From a virus (lineage: Duplodnaviria > Heunggongvirae > Uroviricota > Caudoviricetes): DNA of 48,566 nucleotides. Position numbers and translations under genes: made by a program. Location of the stretch: IMG/VR virus record IMGVR_UViG_2636415673_000004, positions 1 to 48,566 of that record. The stretch is one strand, 5' to 3'. The notes under the pieces are model-generated. The model did no database searches. It was not told where the DNA came from and saw only the letters and a program-made list of their open reading frames with translations. Shown here in pieces: positions 20,574 through 48,566 of the stretch (position 1 is its first letter; the number at the start of each line of letters is the position of its first letter).

Positions 20574-20593
<20 letters not shown>
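19274..20593 (-). CDS. C: Capsid maturation protease C (439 aa), GTG start
   Basis: Protein (M)TAELRNLPHIASMAFNEPLM...; GTG at 20591-20593 preceded by GGAGGAG; overlaps the 3' end of B. Confidence 0.9.
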
Positions 20594-24274
<3,681 letters not shown>

Positions 24275-24300
<26 letters not shown>

Positions 24301-24820
24301 TCAGCAACCCCGGTATCAGTTCATCCAGCGCGGCTGCTTTGTTCATGGCTTTGATGATATCCCGTTTCAGGAAATCAATATGCCGGTTATCCAGCTCAGG
24401 AAAACGTCGCTGCACCGACAGAGGAATACCGTCGAGAATACTGGATATTTCCCTTGCTATACGCGACAGCACGAAAGTACAGAATGCGGTTTCCACCACT
24501 TCAGCCGATTCTTTGGCATTTTTCAGTTCCTGCGCCGTCGCCTGAGCACGAGTCAGGCGATGGCGCTCAAATTCAAGTGTTCCGGGGTGAAGATCTGCCT
24601 CGCTGGCCAGCCGCAGTTCTTCAACCTCCCGGCGCAGCTTTTCGCTCTCAATTTCAGCATCCCTTTCGGCATACCATTTTATGACGGCGGCAGAGTCATA
24701 AAGCACCTCATTACCCTTGCCACCGCCTCGCAGAACGGGCATTCCCTGCTCCTGCCAGTTCTGAATGGTACGGATACTCGCACCGAAAATGTCAGCCAGC
24801 TGCTTTTTGTTGACTTCCAT
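24275..24820 (-). CDS. Nu1: Terminase small subunit Nu1 (181 aa)
   Basis: MEVNKKQLADIFGASIRTIQNWQEQGMPVLRGGGKGNEVLYD... (winged-HTH); overlaps the start of A. Confidence 0.95.
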
Positions 24821-38099: not shown

Positions 38100-38197
38100 A
38101 CGCCCTCCAAAACTAAGTTTTATTAGATGTTAATTATCAATCTATCTTAGGTCAATAAAAACTAAGATTACTTAGTAATTTAAGAAATGGTGCTCCT
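38100..38197. promoter_or_regulatory. Divergent immunity promoter/operator region between cro and cI
   Basis: Perfect 16-bp palindrome ACTAAGATTACTTAGT (38161-38176) plus further ACTAAG/CTTAG half-sites; minus-strand TTGACC, 17 nt, TAACAT as candidate PR. Confidence 0.55.
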
Positions 38198-38824
38198 ATG
38201 GAAACGGTTGGTCAGCGTATAAAAGCTCTGAGAAGGGTTACCAGAACGTCCCAGAAAGAATTGGGTAAATTTTGTGGGGTAAGTGACGTTGCTGTGGGGT
38301 ACTGGGAAAAAGACATCAATGTCCCTGGCGGGGAAGCACTTTCGAAATTAGCGAAGTTCTTTAATACGTCAATAGATTACATTCTTTATGGTGCTGAGTT
38401 TGAAGGCAAACTAGTCACAAACATGCGCAGAGTTCCTGTAATTTCGTGGGTTCAGGCTGGGCAGTTTACTGAGTGCAGGGCAGCAGAAGTGTTTAGTGAA
38501 GTGGACAAGTGGGTAGATACATCTTTAAAGATTGGTGATAACTCATTTGCATTAGAAGTTAAAGGCGACTCCATGACTAATCCTAATGGCCTCCCAACAA
38601 TACCAGAAGGTGCAACAGTGATTGTAGATCCTGATGCAGAACCTCGTCATGGAAAAATAGTCATTGCTCGACTTGATGGAACGAACGAAGCTACAGTAAA
38701 AAAATTAGTCATCGATGGTCCTCAAAAGTTTTTAGTGCCATTAAATCCACGGTATCCCAACATCCCAATCAATGGTAATTGCCTGATCATTGGTGTAGTC
38801 AAAGGAGTTCAATACGAACTCTAG
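38198..38824 (+). CDS. cI: CI-type prophage repressor (HTH-XRE plus S24 LexA-like autopeptidase), 208 aa
   Basis: N-terminal HTH (QKELGKFCGVSDVAVGYWEKD); C-terminal S24 motifs GDSM (Ser) and a downstream Lys (ATVKKL). Confidence 0.85.
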   Translation: METVGQRIKALRRVTRTSQKELGKFCGVSDVAVGYWEKDINVPGGEALSKLAKFFNTSIDYILYGAEFEGKLVTNMRRVPVISWVQAGQFTECRAAEVFSEVDKWVDTSLKIGDNSFALEVKGDSMTNPNGLPTIPEGATVIVDPDAEPRHGKIVIARLDGTNEATVKKLVIDGPQKFLVPLNPRYPNIPINGNCLIIGVVKGVQYEL

Positions 38825-38846: not shown

Positions 38847-38880
38847 CACCAAACTAAGAAAAGTTTGGTGTTTCCTCTTG
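38847..38880 (+). terminator. Candidate terminator downstream of cI
   Basis: CACCAAACT-aagaaa-AGTTTGGTG followed by TTTCCTCTT; AT-rich stem, so only moderate. Confidence 0.4.
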
Positions 38881-38988
38881 CCTTAAAAACTAAGTTAAGT
38901 TAGATTTAATATCAAAGATAACGAACAGGCAGGACGCCCACAAAGTAGCCTCCTGGGGCAAATGAAGTCCAGGATGATTCGTTAGCAA

Positions 38989-39012
38989 CAAAAAAGCGCC
39001 CTATAGGACGCT
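38989..39012 (-). terminator. Rho-independent terminator downstream of the 39055..39576 gene
   Basis: Minus-strand AGCGTCC-TATA-GGGCGCT followed by TTTTTT. Confidence 0.6.
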
Positions 39013-39054
39013 TCGATCTTTAACAATCTGGGTATCATCCAACCAATGCAAGAT

Positions 39055-39576
39055 TTAAGGAATCCAAGGCGAATTCAGATCTCGCCCCGACTCACGTAAT
39101 GATCTTGGTCGTTCGTACATCGGATTTTTTTCCATAAGAAATTTATTTTCACAGTGAAGGCAACGGCTTGTAAGAAAATGAGAAGTTTTACCTACTGGAA
39201 GCGGATGAAGTATCGATTTTATATTTTTGGAATAACAAAGTGGGCACAGATGCACAGTTATTTCTTTTCCACTCACAATTTCATTTTTAGAGTAAACAAA
39301 AGCACCAGAGTCAAGCTGATCAAGGACATATCCTTCTACCTTGGCACAAAAATCTTCAAACTCTGCAATTTTTGCTTTGAGATGCATCACCTCTTCATCA
39401 CGAAGGCGGATCGCATCGCCAAGAGAGAAGCATTCTGCCTGAAGCGTGATTAGTTTGTTCTGGAGTTCAATGGTTGCAGCTTTAACTTCTGCATCCGTTT
39501 TCGCGTCATTAATAACCTTAGCAAGACCGGCAGTCTCCTTTATAGCAGCCATAGCCGCAGACAGTTCAGCTATCAC
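39055..39576 (-). CDS. Hypothetical protein (173 aa; coiled-coil N-terminus, CxxC...CxxC C-terminus), antisense to cI and the early-left operon
   Basis: Non-repetitive ORF with its own terminator; CPLCYSK...CLHCENKF motif; start codon GTG (39576) or ATG (39552), both with weak RBS. Confidence 0.45.
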   Translation of the reverse strand: MIAELSAAMAAIKETAGLAKVINDAKTDAEVKAATIELQNKLITLQAECFSLGDAIRLRDEEVMHLKAKIAEFEDFCAKVEGYVLDQLDSGAFVYSKNEIVSGKEITVHLCPLCYSKNIKSILHPLPVGKTSHFLTSRCLHCENKFLMEKNPMYERPRSLRESGRDLNSPWIP

Positions 39577-40045
39577 GTTGAATACTCAGCTAGTTGTTGG
39601 GGGTATCCAGATTAACCAAATCCTTGTTGTTGGGGAATAACCAGGTCCACCTCGCCTGATGTGGCTAAAAGCAGGCACATAACAGCTAAGTATTTTCAAC
39701 CAGAGAGAATCCTTAGCGTTGTGGTGAATGCGGCTCAGCGCACGCGGGTTAAGGTTGAGGCTGACAGTCGACCTTCTGTGGATACCCACCCGTCTGGTGT
39801 GCAACCTTCGCCAGGCACCGGGAGGCACCCGGCACCACAACTTTATGCTGTGTGTAGTCCTGGCGGTACCAGTTTGTACCCTTGCTTCCGGCTGGTACCG
39901 TCCTTTTTACAAAACAGAGAAGAGCATCACCGGACGACGGGCTCATAACCCAATCCATCCGGGCGGCTGCCACCGCAGGTGTTCTTCTCTGTTTTGTGGA
40001 GAAACTAATCGGCCTTGCAGGGTCGATATGATGAGGAGCAGCAAA

Positions 40046-40408
40046 ATGGCTAGCGAACGCAGTACTGATGTGCAGGCATTTATCGGGGAGCTGGACGGCG
40101 GCGTATTTGAAACCAAAATCGGCGCAGTTCTCAGTGAAGTCGCTTCCGGTGTGATGAACACGAAAACCAAAGGTAAGGTCTCACTCAACCTGGAAATCGA
40201 ACCATTTGATGAGAACCGTGTGAAAATCAAACACAAACTCTCATATGTTCGCCCGACTAACCGCGGGAAAATTTCCGAAGAAGACACCACCGAAACGCCG
40301 ATGTATGTCAATCGCGGTGGTCGCCTGACTATTCTGCAGGAAGACCAGGGACAATTACTGACTCTTGCCGGTGAGCCTGACGGAAAATTACGCGCAGCAG
40401 GTCATTAA
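40046..40408 (+). CDS. YfdP-like hypothetical protein (120 aa)
   Basis: Strong RBS (GAGGAG, 7 nt, ATG at 40046); first gene of a YfdP/Q/R/S-like cluster. Confidence 0.6.
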   Translation: MASERSTDVQAFIGELDGGVFETKIGAVLSEVASGVMNTKTKGKVSLNLEIEPFDENRVKIKHKLSYVRPTNRGKISEEDTTETPMYVNRGGRLTILQEDQGQLLTLAGEPDGKLRAAGH

Positions 40409-43332: not shown

Positions 43333-46300
43333 TCACACGCTGCGCCTTCGAGAATATTCATTTAATCGCTGATAACGAACATCTTGCTCCAGTTGTGGAG
43401 CAGCTTGAACAATTTGAAGCAAGCATTGCCCCAACTCTCGAGGCCCCCAGTGTTGTTCGGCAATCACGGCATTCAGCAGGGATAGAGCGTCCGCAGGATA
43501 TCGGCTGCAAATATCTGATTCTAGCAAAAGGCGAACGTCGTAGCTAAGGTGTTCGAGCGGTTGCAGCCAGTCCTGCACCACTGCCAAAGCCGCCGGAAAT
43601 TCACCTCGGGCAGCAATCACCATACGAGTCAACGATTCGGATATGCGTGGGGTGGCCAAGTTGCGGGACTTTGGCCAAACCTGTTGCCAAAATGGCTGGA
43701 CACGATTTTTCCAATACTCCTCGCGCTGATCGCCCGCACCTTCAAGTGCCTGGTATAACGCCTGCGCGGCTACCTCCAGACCTTCTTGTGGAAGAGCACT
43801 AATTGCCGTTCGGAACTCCTCCACGGTATATCCCTCGGTAGGGCCCAGAGCTGCATAAGTCAGGAAAGTAGCGAATTGCTGCCGGTGCTCGCCAAGATCA
43901 GAATAGTGATTGGCGCTCTCCAAAAAATCTGACTTGAAAGCTATCAGCAACGGTTCATACAGGCGTGGCGACCAGAGGAAGCCTTCCCACACAGCTTTTG
44001 CTTCGACGGGATTACTCCAAGCAAACAAGGGCAATAGATACTGTTCGGTCCAAGGTCGATCTACGCGAAAAAATGCGATCAGCCGCGACCCCAGCAACAC
44101 CCGACCATGGCGGAATAGCTCTATCTGTACATTACACAATTTGGTGAAAAGTGTTTTCAATTCAACAGGAAGCAAATCATTGTCATTCGGGTTCTGTTTG
44201 AACCATAGGGTGATCAGTGATTGCGTGACATGCCCAATGGGATGATTGATCGCCGTAGAAACAGGATCATAGGTCTCAATTCCGTTTCGAATGGTGCTAG
44301 ACTCTGGGCTTGTTTCTATCATCAGAACCCGACGACAAAGGGCCAGTAGAATCTCCTCGTGGCAGAGGATGGTCTTCGAAGCCTCCTCCATCCACCAAGT
44401 GACAGCGTGGGAAATCTCCTGAAGTACTGCGTCAGGCATGTCAAGCACCAACGGTGCGGCGTACCGCCACGAACGCAAAATCATCCCTGGTTCAGCCCAA
44501 GTCTGCAGAGCTTCACGCCACCGACCAACAGGCCACACATCATCTTGTGATAGTTTACTTAACGCATACAGACTGTGAAAAAAGCGCGTACGGCAAACAT
44601 CACTCCAAGTGTCCTCATAGAAAGGCAGTCTTTCTGGCATAGGCTTTGCGAGCCATTGCACTAATTCCTGCCACTTACGGGGCGCAATGTCGACATCTAT
44701 ATTCTCCTCGAAGCCTGGATCACCGGTTCCGCTCATCCAGTGAGAGAATTCATCACGCTCGTTGGTTGCCAGTTGCCATTTTGGGTATGCTGTGGATATT
44801 TCCGTCAAACGTGTAGCCGCAGACTCTCCCAAAACAAGGCCCGCTCCCCTGAGCTTCGCTAGACACAACCAGACGGAATGAGCCACCAAATAATGCCACC
44901 TGTCTGCTTCCAAATTATCCTCGTACATCTCGCGCGGAGGCCCTGCCAAGATAGCAGTTTCCAGACGCTCTTGTGCAATTCCTGTCAGATGTCGTCCCTG
45001 CAAAACAAACAGTCTGAATACCTCTCGCCCAGTATCCGTGGCCCACAACCACCATGAACCGTCCTCTAACAACCAATTAACCCACCGCTCAGGTGGTATG
45101 CAGTTGTCTTGGCTTGCGGCAAACAGTGCCAGACGTTTGAAGGTGGGATATGGCAACTCAAACCAATTCTGAGCAATGCGCGTGGCCTGATCGCTGTCTT
45201 TGGCTCGAACGGCTAACCATGAATCCCGAAGTAATTCAATCAGGCTCACCCAATCGCGGAACCCCCGGTTCTGCCAGTGCGGAGTGATGGACGGCAAATC
45301 CCAATGCGAGCGGTCGTGACGATCGTCGGACTCTCCCAACTCCCGCAACAAGTCCAGTGCATCACGCAACAACTGCTGAAAATCTTCCAACAGGTATGGC
45401 AAGGACGATTTCCATGACTCGTCAGCAAGGTCGAACAGGGTTGAACGTACGTAATCAGCAGTCAGCACCAGCTCCCAATCCACCAATTGCTTGATTCGCA
45501 AGGGTTCATCAGTGCTGCTCGAATCGTCTTCACTATAGCGAAACGGCCGCCTCAACATAACCTTGGGAGAAAGCAACTCGCGTAACTCCAAGCGCAATGT
45601 AGTCGTCAAGCCTTCATTCTTTAAGCGGTTTTGCCAACGATACAAATCCAGGTTCTGCAATGGCGATTTCACACGACCACTAAGCAGAAGCCGCCATAAA
45701 GTAGACATAGGTGGACCAGGAATAGCCAGGGGGGAATGCAAGAGAATTTCATCTAACTCAAAAGTCTTACGCTCCCGCATCAGTGCTGCTAAGCGATCTA
45801 GTTCGCTCTCAATCAGAAACATCCAACGGTCGTGTATTTGTCCGCCGCGTTCAGCAATCCATATGATCAACCTAGGGTCGCCCAGATAACGAACTAGCCA
45901 ACGGGCTATATGGGACATTACGTCATCCCATTTGCTAGCACTGACACATCCAGAAACCAGCGACATCTGCAGGGCCAGCTCATAGGGCGCAGGACGCTGA
46001 ACCAGACTGAATCGGAGTTTCGGGTCAATTTCGACATGCGGAGATACACAAAAGCGTGGCAGATCGCTGTATTTAAATCGTTCGTCCGAGAAAGCTTTCA
46101 ATAACCAATCCAGCGGCGGTGCAGGATTGAGTTCCGCAAAGCGTTTTGCTGGTAAACCTGATTTATCTGACAAGGCCCACAACATCCGACCAACGAAATC
46201 GTCCTGACGAGTGCTGTCCTGCGGGCGGGCCAGAGCATGTTTGACGACTATAGCCTCTTTGCCCTGTATACCATCTCGATAAGTATCTGCCCAAGCGTGC

Positions 46301-47160
46301 AACGTTTGATGCAGCACTGAATGATCAGTGGAGCCCGCCGGTACGGTGTAAAGGATAGGAGTGACCCCTTTGGCCTCCCACTCGATGGCTTTCCGGTGCT
46401 CCTGCCCCGGCTCACACTCCCCCAGTGCCCATACTTGTGGTGTGACTTCACCGAGCCTCCGATCTGCTGCAAGCGCATCCATCATGTAGCGCAGTACCGG
46501 GTCGTTGATGCTGTAGCCAACGAAGCAGACCACATAGTTACGAAATAACTCACTCACAAAGCGAGCTGCCCAACGCTCAGTGAGATAAGCCAAGCCAAAG
46601 TCACCGCTGGTAACAACCAGACGATTCAGGGCAGTATCATCCGCCTTTTCCGGTAACAGCCCATGCAGGTATACAAGTCCATCCCAGCGGCTGTTTTTTG
46701 GAATTGGCAGCATCGGCGCTACATAGGCCTGAAAAGCCTGGCCTGTACGTTTAGCTGCCACATGAAAGAGACGGTCAAAGTTGGTAGTGACCAATCGAAG
46801 GGCACCCTCGCGGCTACGGGCTAAACGTAACAGCGCCGCCTGAGTATCAATAGCGCCCCTACGACGGAGCTTTGGCTTAAGGGCTTTTTCCAACGCGCGT
46901 CGGACGGCTATACGCTGCCCTGGTAAGCGCCGTTCCAGCAAATCTAATGTGCCGTCAAATTGCCCACGCTCGAAAACCTCACGCTCAATTTCTGAAAGTG
47001 TTGTTCCGTTCCTCTGGTAAATTAGTTCTACCAACCCTTTGAAACCAGGTAAACCAGCAGGGTAGGAAATGCCTGCTCCACAGAAGAACACAACGCGCCC
47101 TTCCTCGTGCGCCTGCAAAAGCTCATCAGGAATATCAGGGCCGTTGGTAATGAATTGCAT
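43333..47160 (-). CDS. Large SIR2-domain protein (1275 aa): N-terminal sirtuin-like NADase domain (about aa 20-290) plus about 1000-aa helical C-terminal region of unknown function; candidate antiphage defence protein
   Basis: Sirtuin motifs GAGIS-x-P-x-GLPGF (aa 28-40), TTNFD (N127) and YLHG (H166); strong RBS (AGGAGG, 7 nt, ATG); cargo position between xis and int. Confidence 0.8.
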   Translation of the reverse strand: MQFITNGPDIPDELLQAHEEGRVVFFCGAGISYPAGLPGFKGLVELIYQRNGTTLSEIEREVFERGQFDGTLDLLERRLPGQRIAVRRALEKALKPKLRRRGAIDTQAALLRLARSREGALRLVTTNFDRLFHVAAKRTGQAFQAYVAPMLPIPKNSRWDGLVYLHGLLPEKADDTALNRLVVTSGDFGLAYLTERWAARFVSELFRNYVVCFVGYSINDPVLRYMMDALAADRRLGEVTPQVWALGECEPGQEHRKAIEWEAKGVTPILYTVPAGSTDHSVLHQTLHAWADTYRDGIQGKEAIVVKHALARPQDSTRQDDFVGRMLWALSDKSGLPAKRFAELNPAPPLDWLLKAFSDERFKYSDLPRFCVSPHVEIDPKLRFSLVQRPAPYELALQMSLVSGCVSASKWDDVMSHIARWLVRYLGDPRLIIWIAERGGQIHDRWMFLIESELDRLAALMRERKTFELDEILLHSPLAIPGPPMSTLWRLLLSGRVKSPLQNLDLYRWQNRLKNEGLTTTLRLELRELLSPKVMLRRPFRYSEDDSSSTDEPLRIKQLVDWELVLTADYVRSTLFDLADESWKSSLPYLLEDFQQLLRDALDLLRELGESDDRHDRSHWDLPSITPHWQNRGFRDWVSLIELLRDSWLAVRAKDSDQATRIAQNWFELPYPTFKRLALFAASQDNCIPPERWVNWLLEDGSWWLWATDTGREVFRLFVLQGRHLTGIAQERLETAILAGPPREMYEDNLEADRWHYLVAHSVWLCLAKLRGAGLVLGESAATRLTEISTAYPKWQLATNERDEFSHWMSGTGDPGFEENIDVDIAPRKWQELVQWLAKPMPERLPFYEDTWSDVCRTRFFHSLYALSKLSQDDVWPVGRWREALQTWAEPGMILRSWRYAAPLVLDMPDAVLQEISHAVTWWMEEASKTILCHEEILLALCRRVLMIETSPESSTIRNGIETYDPVSTAINHPIGHVTQSLITLWFKQNPNDNDLLPVELKTLFTKLCNVQIELFRHGRVLLGSRLIAFFRVDRPWTEQYLLPLFAWSNPVEAKAVWEGFLWSPRLYEPLLIAFKSDFLESANHYSDLGEHRQQFATFLTYAALGPTEGYTVEEFRTAISALPQEGLEVAAQALYQALEGAGDQREEYWKNRVQPFWQQVWPKSRNLATPRISESLTRMVIAARGEFPAALAVVQDWLQPLEHLSYDVRLLLESDICSRYPADALSLLNAVIAEQHWGPRELGQCLLQIVQAAPQLEQDVRYQRLNEYSRRRSV

Positions 47161-47342: not shown

Positions 47343-48566
47343 TCATTTCGAGCCTGAACGAGTACAAGTAACAATCGATTCAACTCTCTCCCACCATGCC
47401 TGGTAGGCTTTACGCTGTTCTTCTAGATAATCACTCTTGTCATAAACTTGCCATACACCTGGCAGTTTATGACCGAGCATTATTTCAGCAATATGAGGCG
47501 CAGTAAGATCAGAAAAGTTTGTTCGTGCTGTTCGTCTCAAATCATGAAGAGACCAATGAGGAAATTGATACCCCAAACGCCGCCATGCGTACTGCATTAA
47601 ATTGTAAGGTAGCGACTGCAATGATGTCCGACCAACTGGTTCCCTGCTTCCTTCCTTAGTAAAAAGCATATCGGAACCGTTGTTCATAGAGATAACGTAT
47701 TTTATAAGCTCTTCAACCGGTTCAATAATGGGCCGCTTTAGCGGTTCGCCTGTTATATCCCCTGTCTTATGTCGTTCTGGTGGTACAGTCCATATTTTAT
47801 TAATGAAATCAAAATCGTCCACCTTGGCAGTAATTAGCTCTGAACTACGGCAACCAAAATGCAGCAATAGTTTAATGAAGGCCCGGTATTTAGGAACCAT
47901 TCGAGAACCATCGATCGCAGCATAAAGGATTTTAATTTCATCATGTGTCAGAAACCGTTTCTTCTGACCTTTACGGATATCCATATCTTTACCCGTGATA
48001 TCCGACAGCGGGCGAGTTTCAATGAGCTTTCTCTTATACGCCCAGACATGGGCCTGCTTTGCGTTAATTAGCAATCGGTCTGCTATTGCTGGAGTCTTAG
48101 TGCTAAGAGGCTCCAGGACTTCTAACCAATCATGCAATGTAGCTGCATCGTGAGGGATATTCCCGATTTTAGAGAACAGGTGCAGCTCAAACGAGCGGAG
48201 TATCTGTTCAGAACCTTTTTTATTTTTTACACAATATGCTTCATACCAAGCACGGATCACAGATTCTACCGTCATGGCTTCAGTAGCTTTACGTTTTTCT
48301 GCCAGCTTGACCAATCGTGGATTGCGGTTTGACTCGAGTTCACCACGAAGACGGATAACTTCTTCTCTGGCCTCTTTTAGTCCAGTTGCCGGGTAAGTTC
48401 CGATATCAAGACGCTCACCTTTCCCCGCCCACTGATAACGATATTGGAACACTACGCGACCTTTCGGTGATACTCTAACAGACAGACCATCACGATCGGA
48501 TTTAACCAAAACCTTATCACGTTCCTTTCCAACAACTGAACGCAACCACGCATCAGACAGCGCCAT
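47343..48566 (-). CDS. int: Tyrosine-type phage integrase (407 aa); ATG at the window edge
   Basis: N-terminus MALSDAWLRSVVGKERDKVL...GLSVRVSPKGRVVFQYRY typical of P4-like integrases; C-terminal catalytic region with HDLRRT and HxxG-Y motifs. Confidence 0.85.
   Translation of the reverse strand: MALSDAWLRSVVGKERDKVLVKSDRDGLSVRVSPKGRVVFQYRYQWAGKGERLDIGTYPATGLKEAREEVIRLRGELESNRNPRLVKLAEKRKATEAMTVESVIRAWYEAYCVKNKKGSEQILRSFELHLFSKIGNIPHDAATLHDWLEVLEPLSTKTPAIADRLLINAKQAHVWAYKRKLIETRPLSDITGKDMDIRKGQKKRFLTHDEIKILYAAIDGSRMVPKYRAFIKLLLHFGCRSSELITAKVDDFDFINKIWTVPPERHKTGDITGEPLKRPIIEPVEELIKYVISMNNGSDMLFTKEGSREPVGRTSLQSLPYNLMQYAWRRLGYQFPHWSLHDLRRTARTNFSDLTAPHIAEIMLGHKLPGVWQVYDKSDYLEEQRKAYQAWWERVESIVTCTRSGSK

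Follow-up and report, generated by a model that had tools for sequence, protein, structure and literature searches.

The window (the whole 48,566-nucleotide stretch of DNA analysed here) carries, on the plus strand, a gene for a cI-like repressor with HTH_3 and Peptidase_S24 domains (38198-38824), followed by a block of left operators with a candidate PL promoter (38853..38906, plus strand) and, on the minus strand, by a gene for a 173-aa protein that is read from the ORF listing with a GTG start (39055..39576) and that we refer to below as the rip1-like gene. The repeat families to which the two operators (38853-38868 and 38889-38904) belong are also represented between cro and cI, and the candidate promoter found by a hexamer scan, TTGCCT-17-TAGATT (38878-38906, plus strand), encloses the operator at 38889. 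In the whole 48.5-kb window, the palindrome ACTAAG-N4-CTTAGT occurs with at most two mismatches only at 38112 and 38161, in the cro-cI gap (OR), and at 38889 (OL), so that all such copies flank cI; a copy with three mismatches lies at 38853. Since the operators and the candidate PL occupy 38853-38906, the rip1-like gene is part of the PL leader, downstream of PL/OL and antisense to PL. An earlier note on this DNA had put the gene between cI and the early-left operon; this position has to be corrected, with PL/OL lying upstream of the gene and the gene itself within the PL leader. Transcription from PL thus crosses the rip1-like gene in antisense and continues across a conserved GC-rich leader into yfdP, yfdQ (DUF2303), yfdR and the genes beyond. 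Phage PhiR29_1 has a different repressor and its own TTGACA promoter at the PL position, and its homology with the window resumes at about 38920.

Several lines of evidence bear on whether the rip1-like ORF is a gene and where it starts. An in-frame TGA is present four codons 5' of the GTG at 39576, and homologues from many Enterobacterales begin at the same place as the window protein, with MIAEL...; together, these two features identify GTG 39576 as the start codon. In E. coli genomes, RefSeq/PGAP annotates exactly this CDS (WP_000559914.1), with 'hypothetical protein' as its product. In the translation-initiation region read from the sequence (39577..39592, minus strand), the only Shine-Dalgarno-like element is a partial GAG located 8 nt before the GTG, which makes for weak initiation signals; in the PhiR29_1 allele, AAGAG is found at this distance. 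More than 160 homologues were found at the 90%-identity cluster level, all from Enterobacterales and all unnamed, and a profile search of 1.84 billion representatives returned 2,503 proteins at E<=1e-3 (784 of them at E<=1e-10), which gives a family of about 2500 representatives as counted at the 50%-identity level. Between the window and PhiR29_1 alleles, dN/dS is 0.26 and dS 1.46, indicating that the protein is under purifying selection. A plus-strand ORF (39154-39453, 99 aa) overlaps the gene, but both dN/dS and homology favour the minus-strand frame. The rip1-like gene is thus real, conserved and under purifying selection. The earlier note, made from the letters alone, had described a 173-aa ORF on the minus strand with poor translation-initiation signals and had made its reading depend on conservation of the ORF in related prophages. 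The ORF is as described (GTG start, 39055-39576, the same CDS as called by RefSeq), its initiation signals are indeed weak, with a GTG start and GAG as sole Shine-Dalgarno-like element, and it is conserved, both in the more than 160 homologues and in the 57%-identical allele of PhiR29_1.

The same note had also reported a Rho-independent terminator 3' of the gene, and our terminator scan agrees: an intrinsic terminator whose 9-bp stem is closed by the 4-nt loop UAUA and followed by a U6GUU tail (TTTTTTGTT) lies at 38983..39014 on the minus strand, the scan itself placing it at 39014-38993, 40 nt beyond the rip1-like stop codon. Its hairpin folds with -12.9 kcal/mol when read on the minus strand, versus -7.2 kcal/mol on the plus strand, where no U-run follows; the stronger fold and the U-run on the minus strand alone indicate that it works for minus-strand transcription only. 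The terminator is kept in PhiR29_1, SfIV and vB_EcoS-569R4 (569R4) regardless of what lies next to it and, as judged from these alignments, it is part of the conserved backbone, outside the exchangeable segment described below. An Rfam 'Phe_leader' match over the terminator was discarded as a chance hit (24 bits where the gathering score is 55, E 0.78).

The gene itself is exchangeable. In alignments with PhiR29_1, SfIV and 569R4, a 0.56-kb segment (39034..39592) is bordered by flanks that are about 98% identical, while its interior is occupied in the relatives either by a rip1-like allele 57% identical to that of the window (PhiR29_1) or by an unrelated gene set. More specifically, the backbone shared with SfIV and 569R4 ends at about 39033 and resumes at 39593, which defines the rip1-like gene as a swappable cassette of 0.56 kb containing this gene only, with 16 nt before its start and about 21 nt after its stop codon. 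Two alleles that are 57% identical, with a dS of 1.46, within flanks that are about 98% identical must both be old relative to these flanks. No minus-strand promoter of the rip1-like gene was found within 540 nt upstream by sigma-70-like hexamer scans (at least 9/12 hexamer matches in the tool scan; at least 8/12, or an extended -10, in further scans); because the cassette supplies only 16 nt 5' of the start codon, any promoter of the gene must lie in the shared backbone. The alternative cassette found in slot 39034-39592 of SfIV and 569R4 (L003 2831-3265, minus strand; L002 2773-3385) encodes, on the minus strand, a 144-aa protein of the ECs1072 family (phrog_5286, NF033230), plus a 68-aa ORF on the plus strand; neither product has a match in Pfam, the PDB or PADLOC. 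The slot has the appearance of a hotspot for cargo, with the ECs1072-family gene as a candidate defence gene. The locus (at least 80% of 38900-39700) is present in 373 of 5,426 complete E. coli genomes, and the backbone in 1,871. On its right side, the cassette is edged by a direct repeat that reads (C)TNGTTGTTGGGG then (G/A)ATANCCAG and is present twice, at 39590-39602 and 39623-39635, 33 bp apart; it is kept in all four phages compared (4/4) and could be a regulator-binding or a recombination site.

What the rip1-like protein might be emerged from profile and structure searches. A profile built from 39 homologues and run against all PDB chains retrieved a single entry, 9oox chain L (E 3.2e-20), with an alignment that takes in positions 5-152 of the 171 in the profile and residues 15-161 of the 164 in the chain; the window protein used as a single query retrieved 9oox_L again (E 1.7e-9), and BLASTP aligned it with the 9oox Rip1 over 147 aa at 25% identity (E 1e-13). 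The title of 9oox describes a cryo-EM structure of Escherichia phage HK446 Rip1 with the small terminase of phage T6, and the Rip1 protein in it corresponds to HK446 gp37. Structure prediction followed by a Foldseek search, as the earlier note had proposed, led to the same structure: at E <1e-3, the only PDB matches of our model were 9oox_L and 9oox_M (probability 1.00, TM 0.54/0.70). Besides, the phrog_1244 family ('unknown function') is matched end to end by the window protein (2.7e-52), by HK446 gp37 (2.2e-53) and by JBD30 gp30 (2.7e-61), the last of which also came up, with its DMS3 and MP42 counterparts, in a tblastn search of phage genomes (about 30% identity, E 1e-12), together with D3112-type relatives that are about 29% identical to the window protein. 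Pfam (E<=1), NCBIfam and PADLOC gave nothing significant for the rip1-like ORF; the characterised Rip1 proteins likewise have no Pfam match, and the PADLOC null is uninformative, as the PADLOC-DB used dates from 2023 and predates the description of Rip1.

The alignment-based AlphaFold2 model of the window protein, which covers the single chain (mean pLDDT 91.2), consists of two helices (residues 2-23 and 28-79) followed by six strands, which form a predicted C-terminal beta/zinc-ribbon domain carrying C111, C114, C139 and C142. The helical N-terminal part and the CxxC...CxxC C-terminus recognised earlier from the translation alone are therefore both present, as two long helices and then a zinc-ribbon beta domain. 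The two cysteine pairs, C111-x2-C114 and C139-x2-C142, are invariant in the 39 homologues and across the wider family, and their spacing inside the six-stranded domain is CxxC-x24-CxxC. Altogether, seven residues (L66, Y83, C111, C114, L123, C139 and C142) are invariant between the window protein, HK446 Rip1, JBD30 gp30 and 16 distant homologues. The Ala/Gly/Ile-rich character of the N-terminus is common to the window protein and the characterised HK446 and JBD30 members, and no transmembrane segment is predicted in the rip1-like protein by Kyte-Doolittle analysis with a 19-residue window, the maximal 19-residue mean being 1.06 for the window protein, 1.28 for HK446 and 0.96 for JBD30. Within the enterobacterial subfamily, column entropy is lowest in the N-terminal helices (mean 0.8-1.0), which are the most conserved part of the protein, and reaches 2.3-2.4 in the loop between the CxxC pairs and in the C-terminal tail, which are hypervariable. 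This pattern, read from the alignment columns, would fit a protein in which a pore-forming effector part stays constant while the part that senses rings diversifies. Two traits are specific to the subfamily and missing from the reference Rip1 proteins, namely an invariant Cys49 in helix 2 and about 20 extra C-terminal residues.

A 2026 review (PMC13434031) summarises, in its passages on Rip1, the work of Patel et al. 2026 on this protein, whose name stands for 'ring interacting pore 1'. [quoted passage not shown] Cryo-EM places 12 Rip1 subunits around an 11-mer ring of small terminase, with the C-terminal half of Rip1 contacting the ring and the N-terminal part forming an amphipathic helix, and Rip1 assemblies cause dye to leak from liposomes and perforate cells (PMC13434031). 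Relatives of Rip1 are described there as widespread in Proteobacteria, chiefly in prophages, and a further source names Rip1 as one of the defence systems that detect the small terminase subunit (PMC13601566). From the position that the review gives for the gene, JBD30 gp30 is probably the protein that was named Rip1.

The resemblance of the window protein to HK446 Rip1 extends from size and layout (173 versus 164 aa, both with N-terminal helices and a C-terminal CxxC...CxxC beta domain) to full-length alignment, membership of phrog_1244 and a matching predicted fold, and each protein is the product of a single gene located on the opposite strand within the PL operon of a lambdoid E. coli phage. 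The two differ in sequence, with only 25% identity, in the invariant Cys49 and longer C-terminal tail of the window protein and in exact position, as HK446 rip1 lies directly after N whereas the window gene precedes the first PL gene and sits in the leader. The Mu-like phages of Pseudomonas aeruginosa provide a second point of comparison: their gene (JBD30 gp30/DMS3/D3112 orf25) specifies a phrog_1244 protein about 30% identical to ours over 152 aa (E 1e-12) and, like the window gene, is oriented against its surroundings, being located on the opposite strand between the small- and large-terminase genes. It belongs, however, to another host and phage type, and to a late packaging module rather than an early-left leader. 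A Klebsiella prophage homologue lies between kil and the repressor gene, again on the opposite strand, so that counter-orientation inside a lytic operon recurs in HK446, JBD30 and this prophage; a Serratia homologue adjoins tail-sheath genes.

The protein thus displays full-length homology to Rip1, its fold, the residues conserved across the family and the organisation of a single-gene prophage system. By its sequence, it is a new enterobacterial member of the Rip1 family already described, and its homology to Rip1 in sequence and predicted fold is the part of the explanation established here. Although its identity to the experimentally tested Rip1 proteins is only 25-30%, we consider it likely that the protein belongs to the Rip1 family as prophage cargo and that the gene is, by homology, a pore-forming antiphage gene. 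The literature other than the primary Rip1 paper yielded no reported activity for the enterobacterial subfamily.

In phage lambda, the two genes for RexAB share a transcript with cI, and one of their products, RexB, spans the membrane several times. The earlier note had pointed to a superinfection-exclusion or abortive-infection moron comparable to rexAB: the kind of gene was well guessed, since the window protein is homologous to Rip1, a pore-forming defence encoded by prophages, but there is no relation to rexAB. The likeness to RexAB is one of role and by analogy only, both being prophage-encoded and repressor-proximal, and RexAB acting in lysogens to abort superinfection by compromising the membrane, as the rip1-like protein may do. 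There is no homology between them, and the window has instead one protein predicted to be soluble, with no transmembrane segment, encoded downstream of PL on the strand opposite cI. A RexAB-type system was accordingly rejected as a candidate, since the locus shows neither a pair of genes, nor co-transcription with cI, nor a polytopic membrane protein, and PADLOC gave no match.

By homology with the characterised Rip1, the following mechanism can be proposed. In a lysogen, the rip1-like protein would be present at a low level as a soluble and harmless monomer. A superinfecting phage that reaches late gene expression would make a ring oligomer, either its small terminase or its portal, around which the variable C-terminal zinc-ribbon domain would dock; the Rip1 ring templated in this way would draw together the amphipathic helices of the conserved N-terminal part, which would form an inner-membrane pore, and the cell would be permeabilised before progeny phage are finished, in other words an abortive infection. 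The antisense position in the PL leader would make the gene expressible while PL is repressed, the strand-specific terminator would shield PL, OL and cI from minus-strand transcription and, after prophage induction, convergent PL transcription would probably damp the rip1-like gene. The recurrence of counter-orientation inside lytic operons across the family points to the same scheme, i.e. expression while the operon is repressed and damping after induction. For the window protein, its presence in the lysogen, the trigger and the pore are extrapolated from the characterised members, and the antisense control from the placement of the gene. Note that the window also encodes a lambda-type Nu1 (24275-24820, minus strand) and a lambda-family portal (20574-22175, minus strand) among its packaging genes (20574-24820); the type of these two proteins may bear on why the morphogenesis proteins of the phage itself would not trigger the rip1-like protein.

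Common descent with Rip1 could nevertheless hide another function, in which the protein would respond to a trigger other than a ring, exclude superinfecting phages at DNA entry or serve the phage's own lysis or packaging. The identity of only 25-30% to the tested members leaves room for such a divergence, as do the invariant Cys49 and extra C-terminal tail of the subfamily, the hypervariability of the loop on the sensor side and the different context of the Serratia homologue beside tail-sheath genes. However, the match to Rip1 runs over the full length in one stretch, the predicted fold agrees with it and every residue invariant across the family is kept, while the orientation of the gene against the lytic operon makes a function in the lytic cycle of the phage itself less plausible; we therefore regard a change of function as unlikely. 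The suggestion, made in the earlier note, of a DksA/TraR-like zinc-finger protein binding RNA polymerase draws on a superficial resemblance, a long helical hairpin followed by four cysteines, and fares much worse: there is no match to zf-dskA_traR or to any other Pfam family at E<=1 and none in NCBIfam, the cysteines are set as CxxC-x24-CxxC within a six-stranded beta domain, and none of the significant fold matches is a DksA-like structure, so that this identity can be given practically no credence.

It might also be that the protein is incidental and that what matters at the locus is transcription, with convergent minus-strand transcripts, stopped at the terminator, modulating PL or the neighbouring small RNA. 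The antisense location of the gene within the PL leader would suit such a role, and so would a terminator that is encoded by the backbone and conserved whichever cassette is present. Purifying selection on the protein (dN/dS 0.26, dS 1.46) between flanks that are about 98% identical is hard to reconcile with it, as are the existence of about 2500 family representatives at the 50%-identity level and the fact that no promoter was detected, and we hold it to be very improbable. We thus retain the assignment of the protein to the Rip1 family as a prophage-borne antiphage factor. A bolder version of this assignment would make the enterobacterial subfamily, with its Cys49, extra tail and hypervariable loop, a distinct branch of Rip1 in which cassette-swapped alleles are each directed at a different phage ring and in which an antisense switch in the PL leader silences the pore protein on induction, thereby sparing the phage's own packaging rings; this scenario is speculative and, in our opinion, rather doubtful.

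The assignment provides a name and a testable mechanism for a gene that RefSeq still labels 'hypothetical protein'. It also suggests that the PL leader of lambdoid prophages of the SfV/SfIV/mEp460/CPS-53 type may serve as a cassette slot for cargo expressed in the lysogen, the alternatives seen in the slot being either a rip1-like allele or a gene of the ECs1072 family. With its conserved N-terminal effector and its hypervariable C-terminal sensor, the allelic series would constitute a natural panel for studying how Rip1 proteins choose their trigger, and the antisense placement offers a simple model of how a prophage could avoid killing itself on induction. These results extend Rip1 biology and leave its general picture unchanged, the mechanism having already been published in 2026; the gene is worth annotating, and a specialist would find no surprise in it.

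The PL leader contains additional features. Directly after the terminator hairpin, a boxA-like sequence, GATCTTTAACAA, is present at 39015-39026 on the plus strand, and PhiR29_1, SfIV and 569R4 display a perfect GCTCTTTAACAA at the same position; this element suggests antitermination of the early-left operon of the NusB/NusE type, although an N-like gene is not evident. Farther along, between the rip1-like gene and yfdP, a stretch of the plus strand (39688-39910) matches the prophage small RNA STnc100 below the Rfam threshold (41.2 bits versus a gathering score of 47, E 1.5e-7). At its end, the STnc100-like element forms a strong hairpin (39862-39902; -23.8 kcal/mol, z -3.8) with UCCUUUUU after it; this hairpin would also terminate PL transcripts unless these are antiterminated. 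STnc100 is reportedly related, according to a 2026 preprint, to the PasD prophage small RNAs. Just 5' of the yfdP start (40046), the conserved GC-rich leader contains a 25-nt inverted repeat (39909-39997, plus strand; 84% complementary, 39-nt loop). The 226-aa ORF at 39728-40408, which follows the annotation of SfIV gp34, probably over-extends yfdP into the non-coding RNA region.

Finally, at 43333-47160 on the minus strand, beside the integrase gene (47343-48566, minus strand), lies a gene for a SIR2-domain protein of 1,275 aa that aligns from end to end with the Dsr1 model of PADLOC (2,729 bits). This match in the same prophage points to a second antiphage defence gene besides the rip1-like gene.
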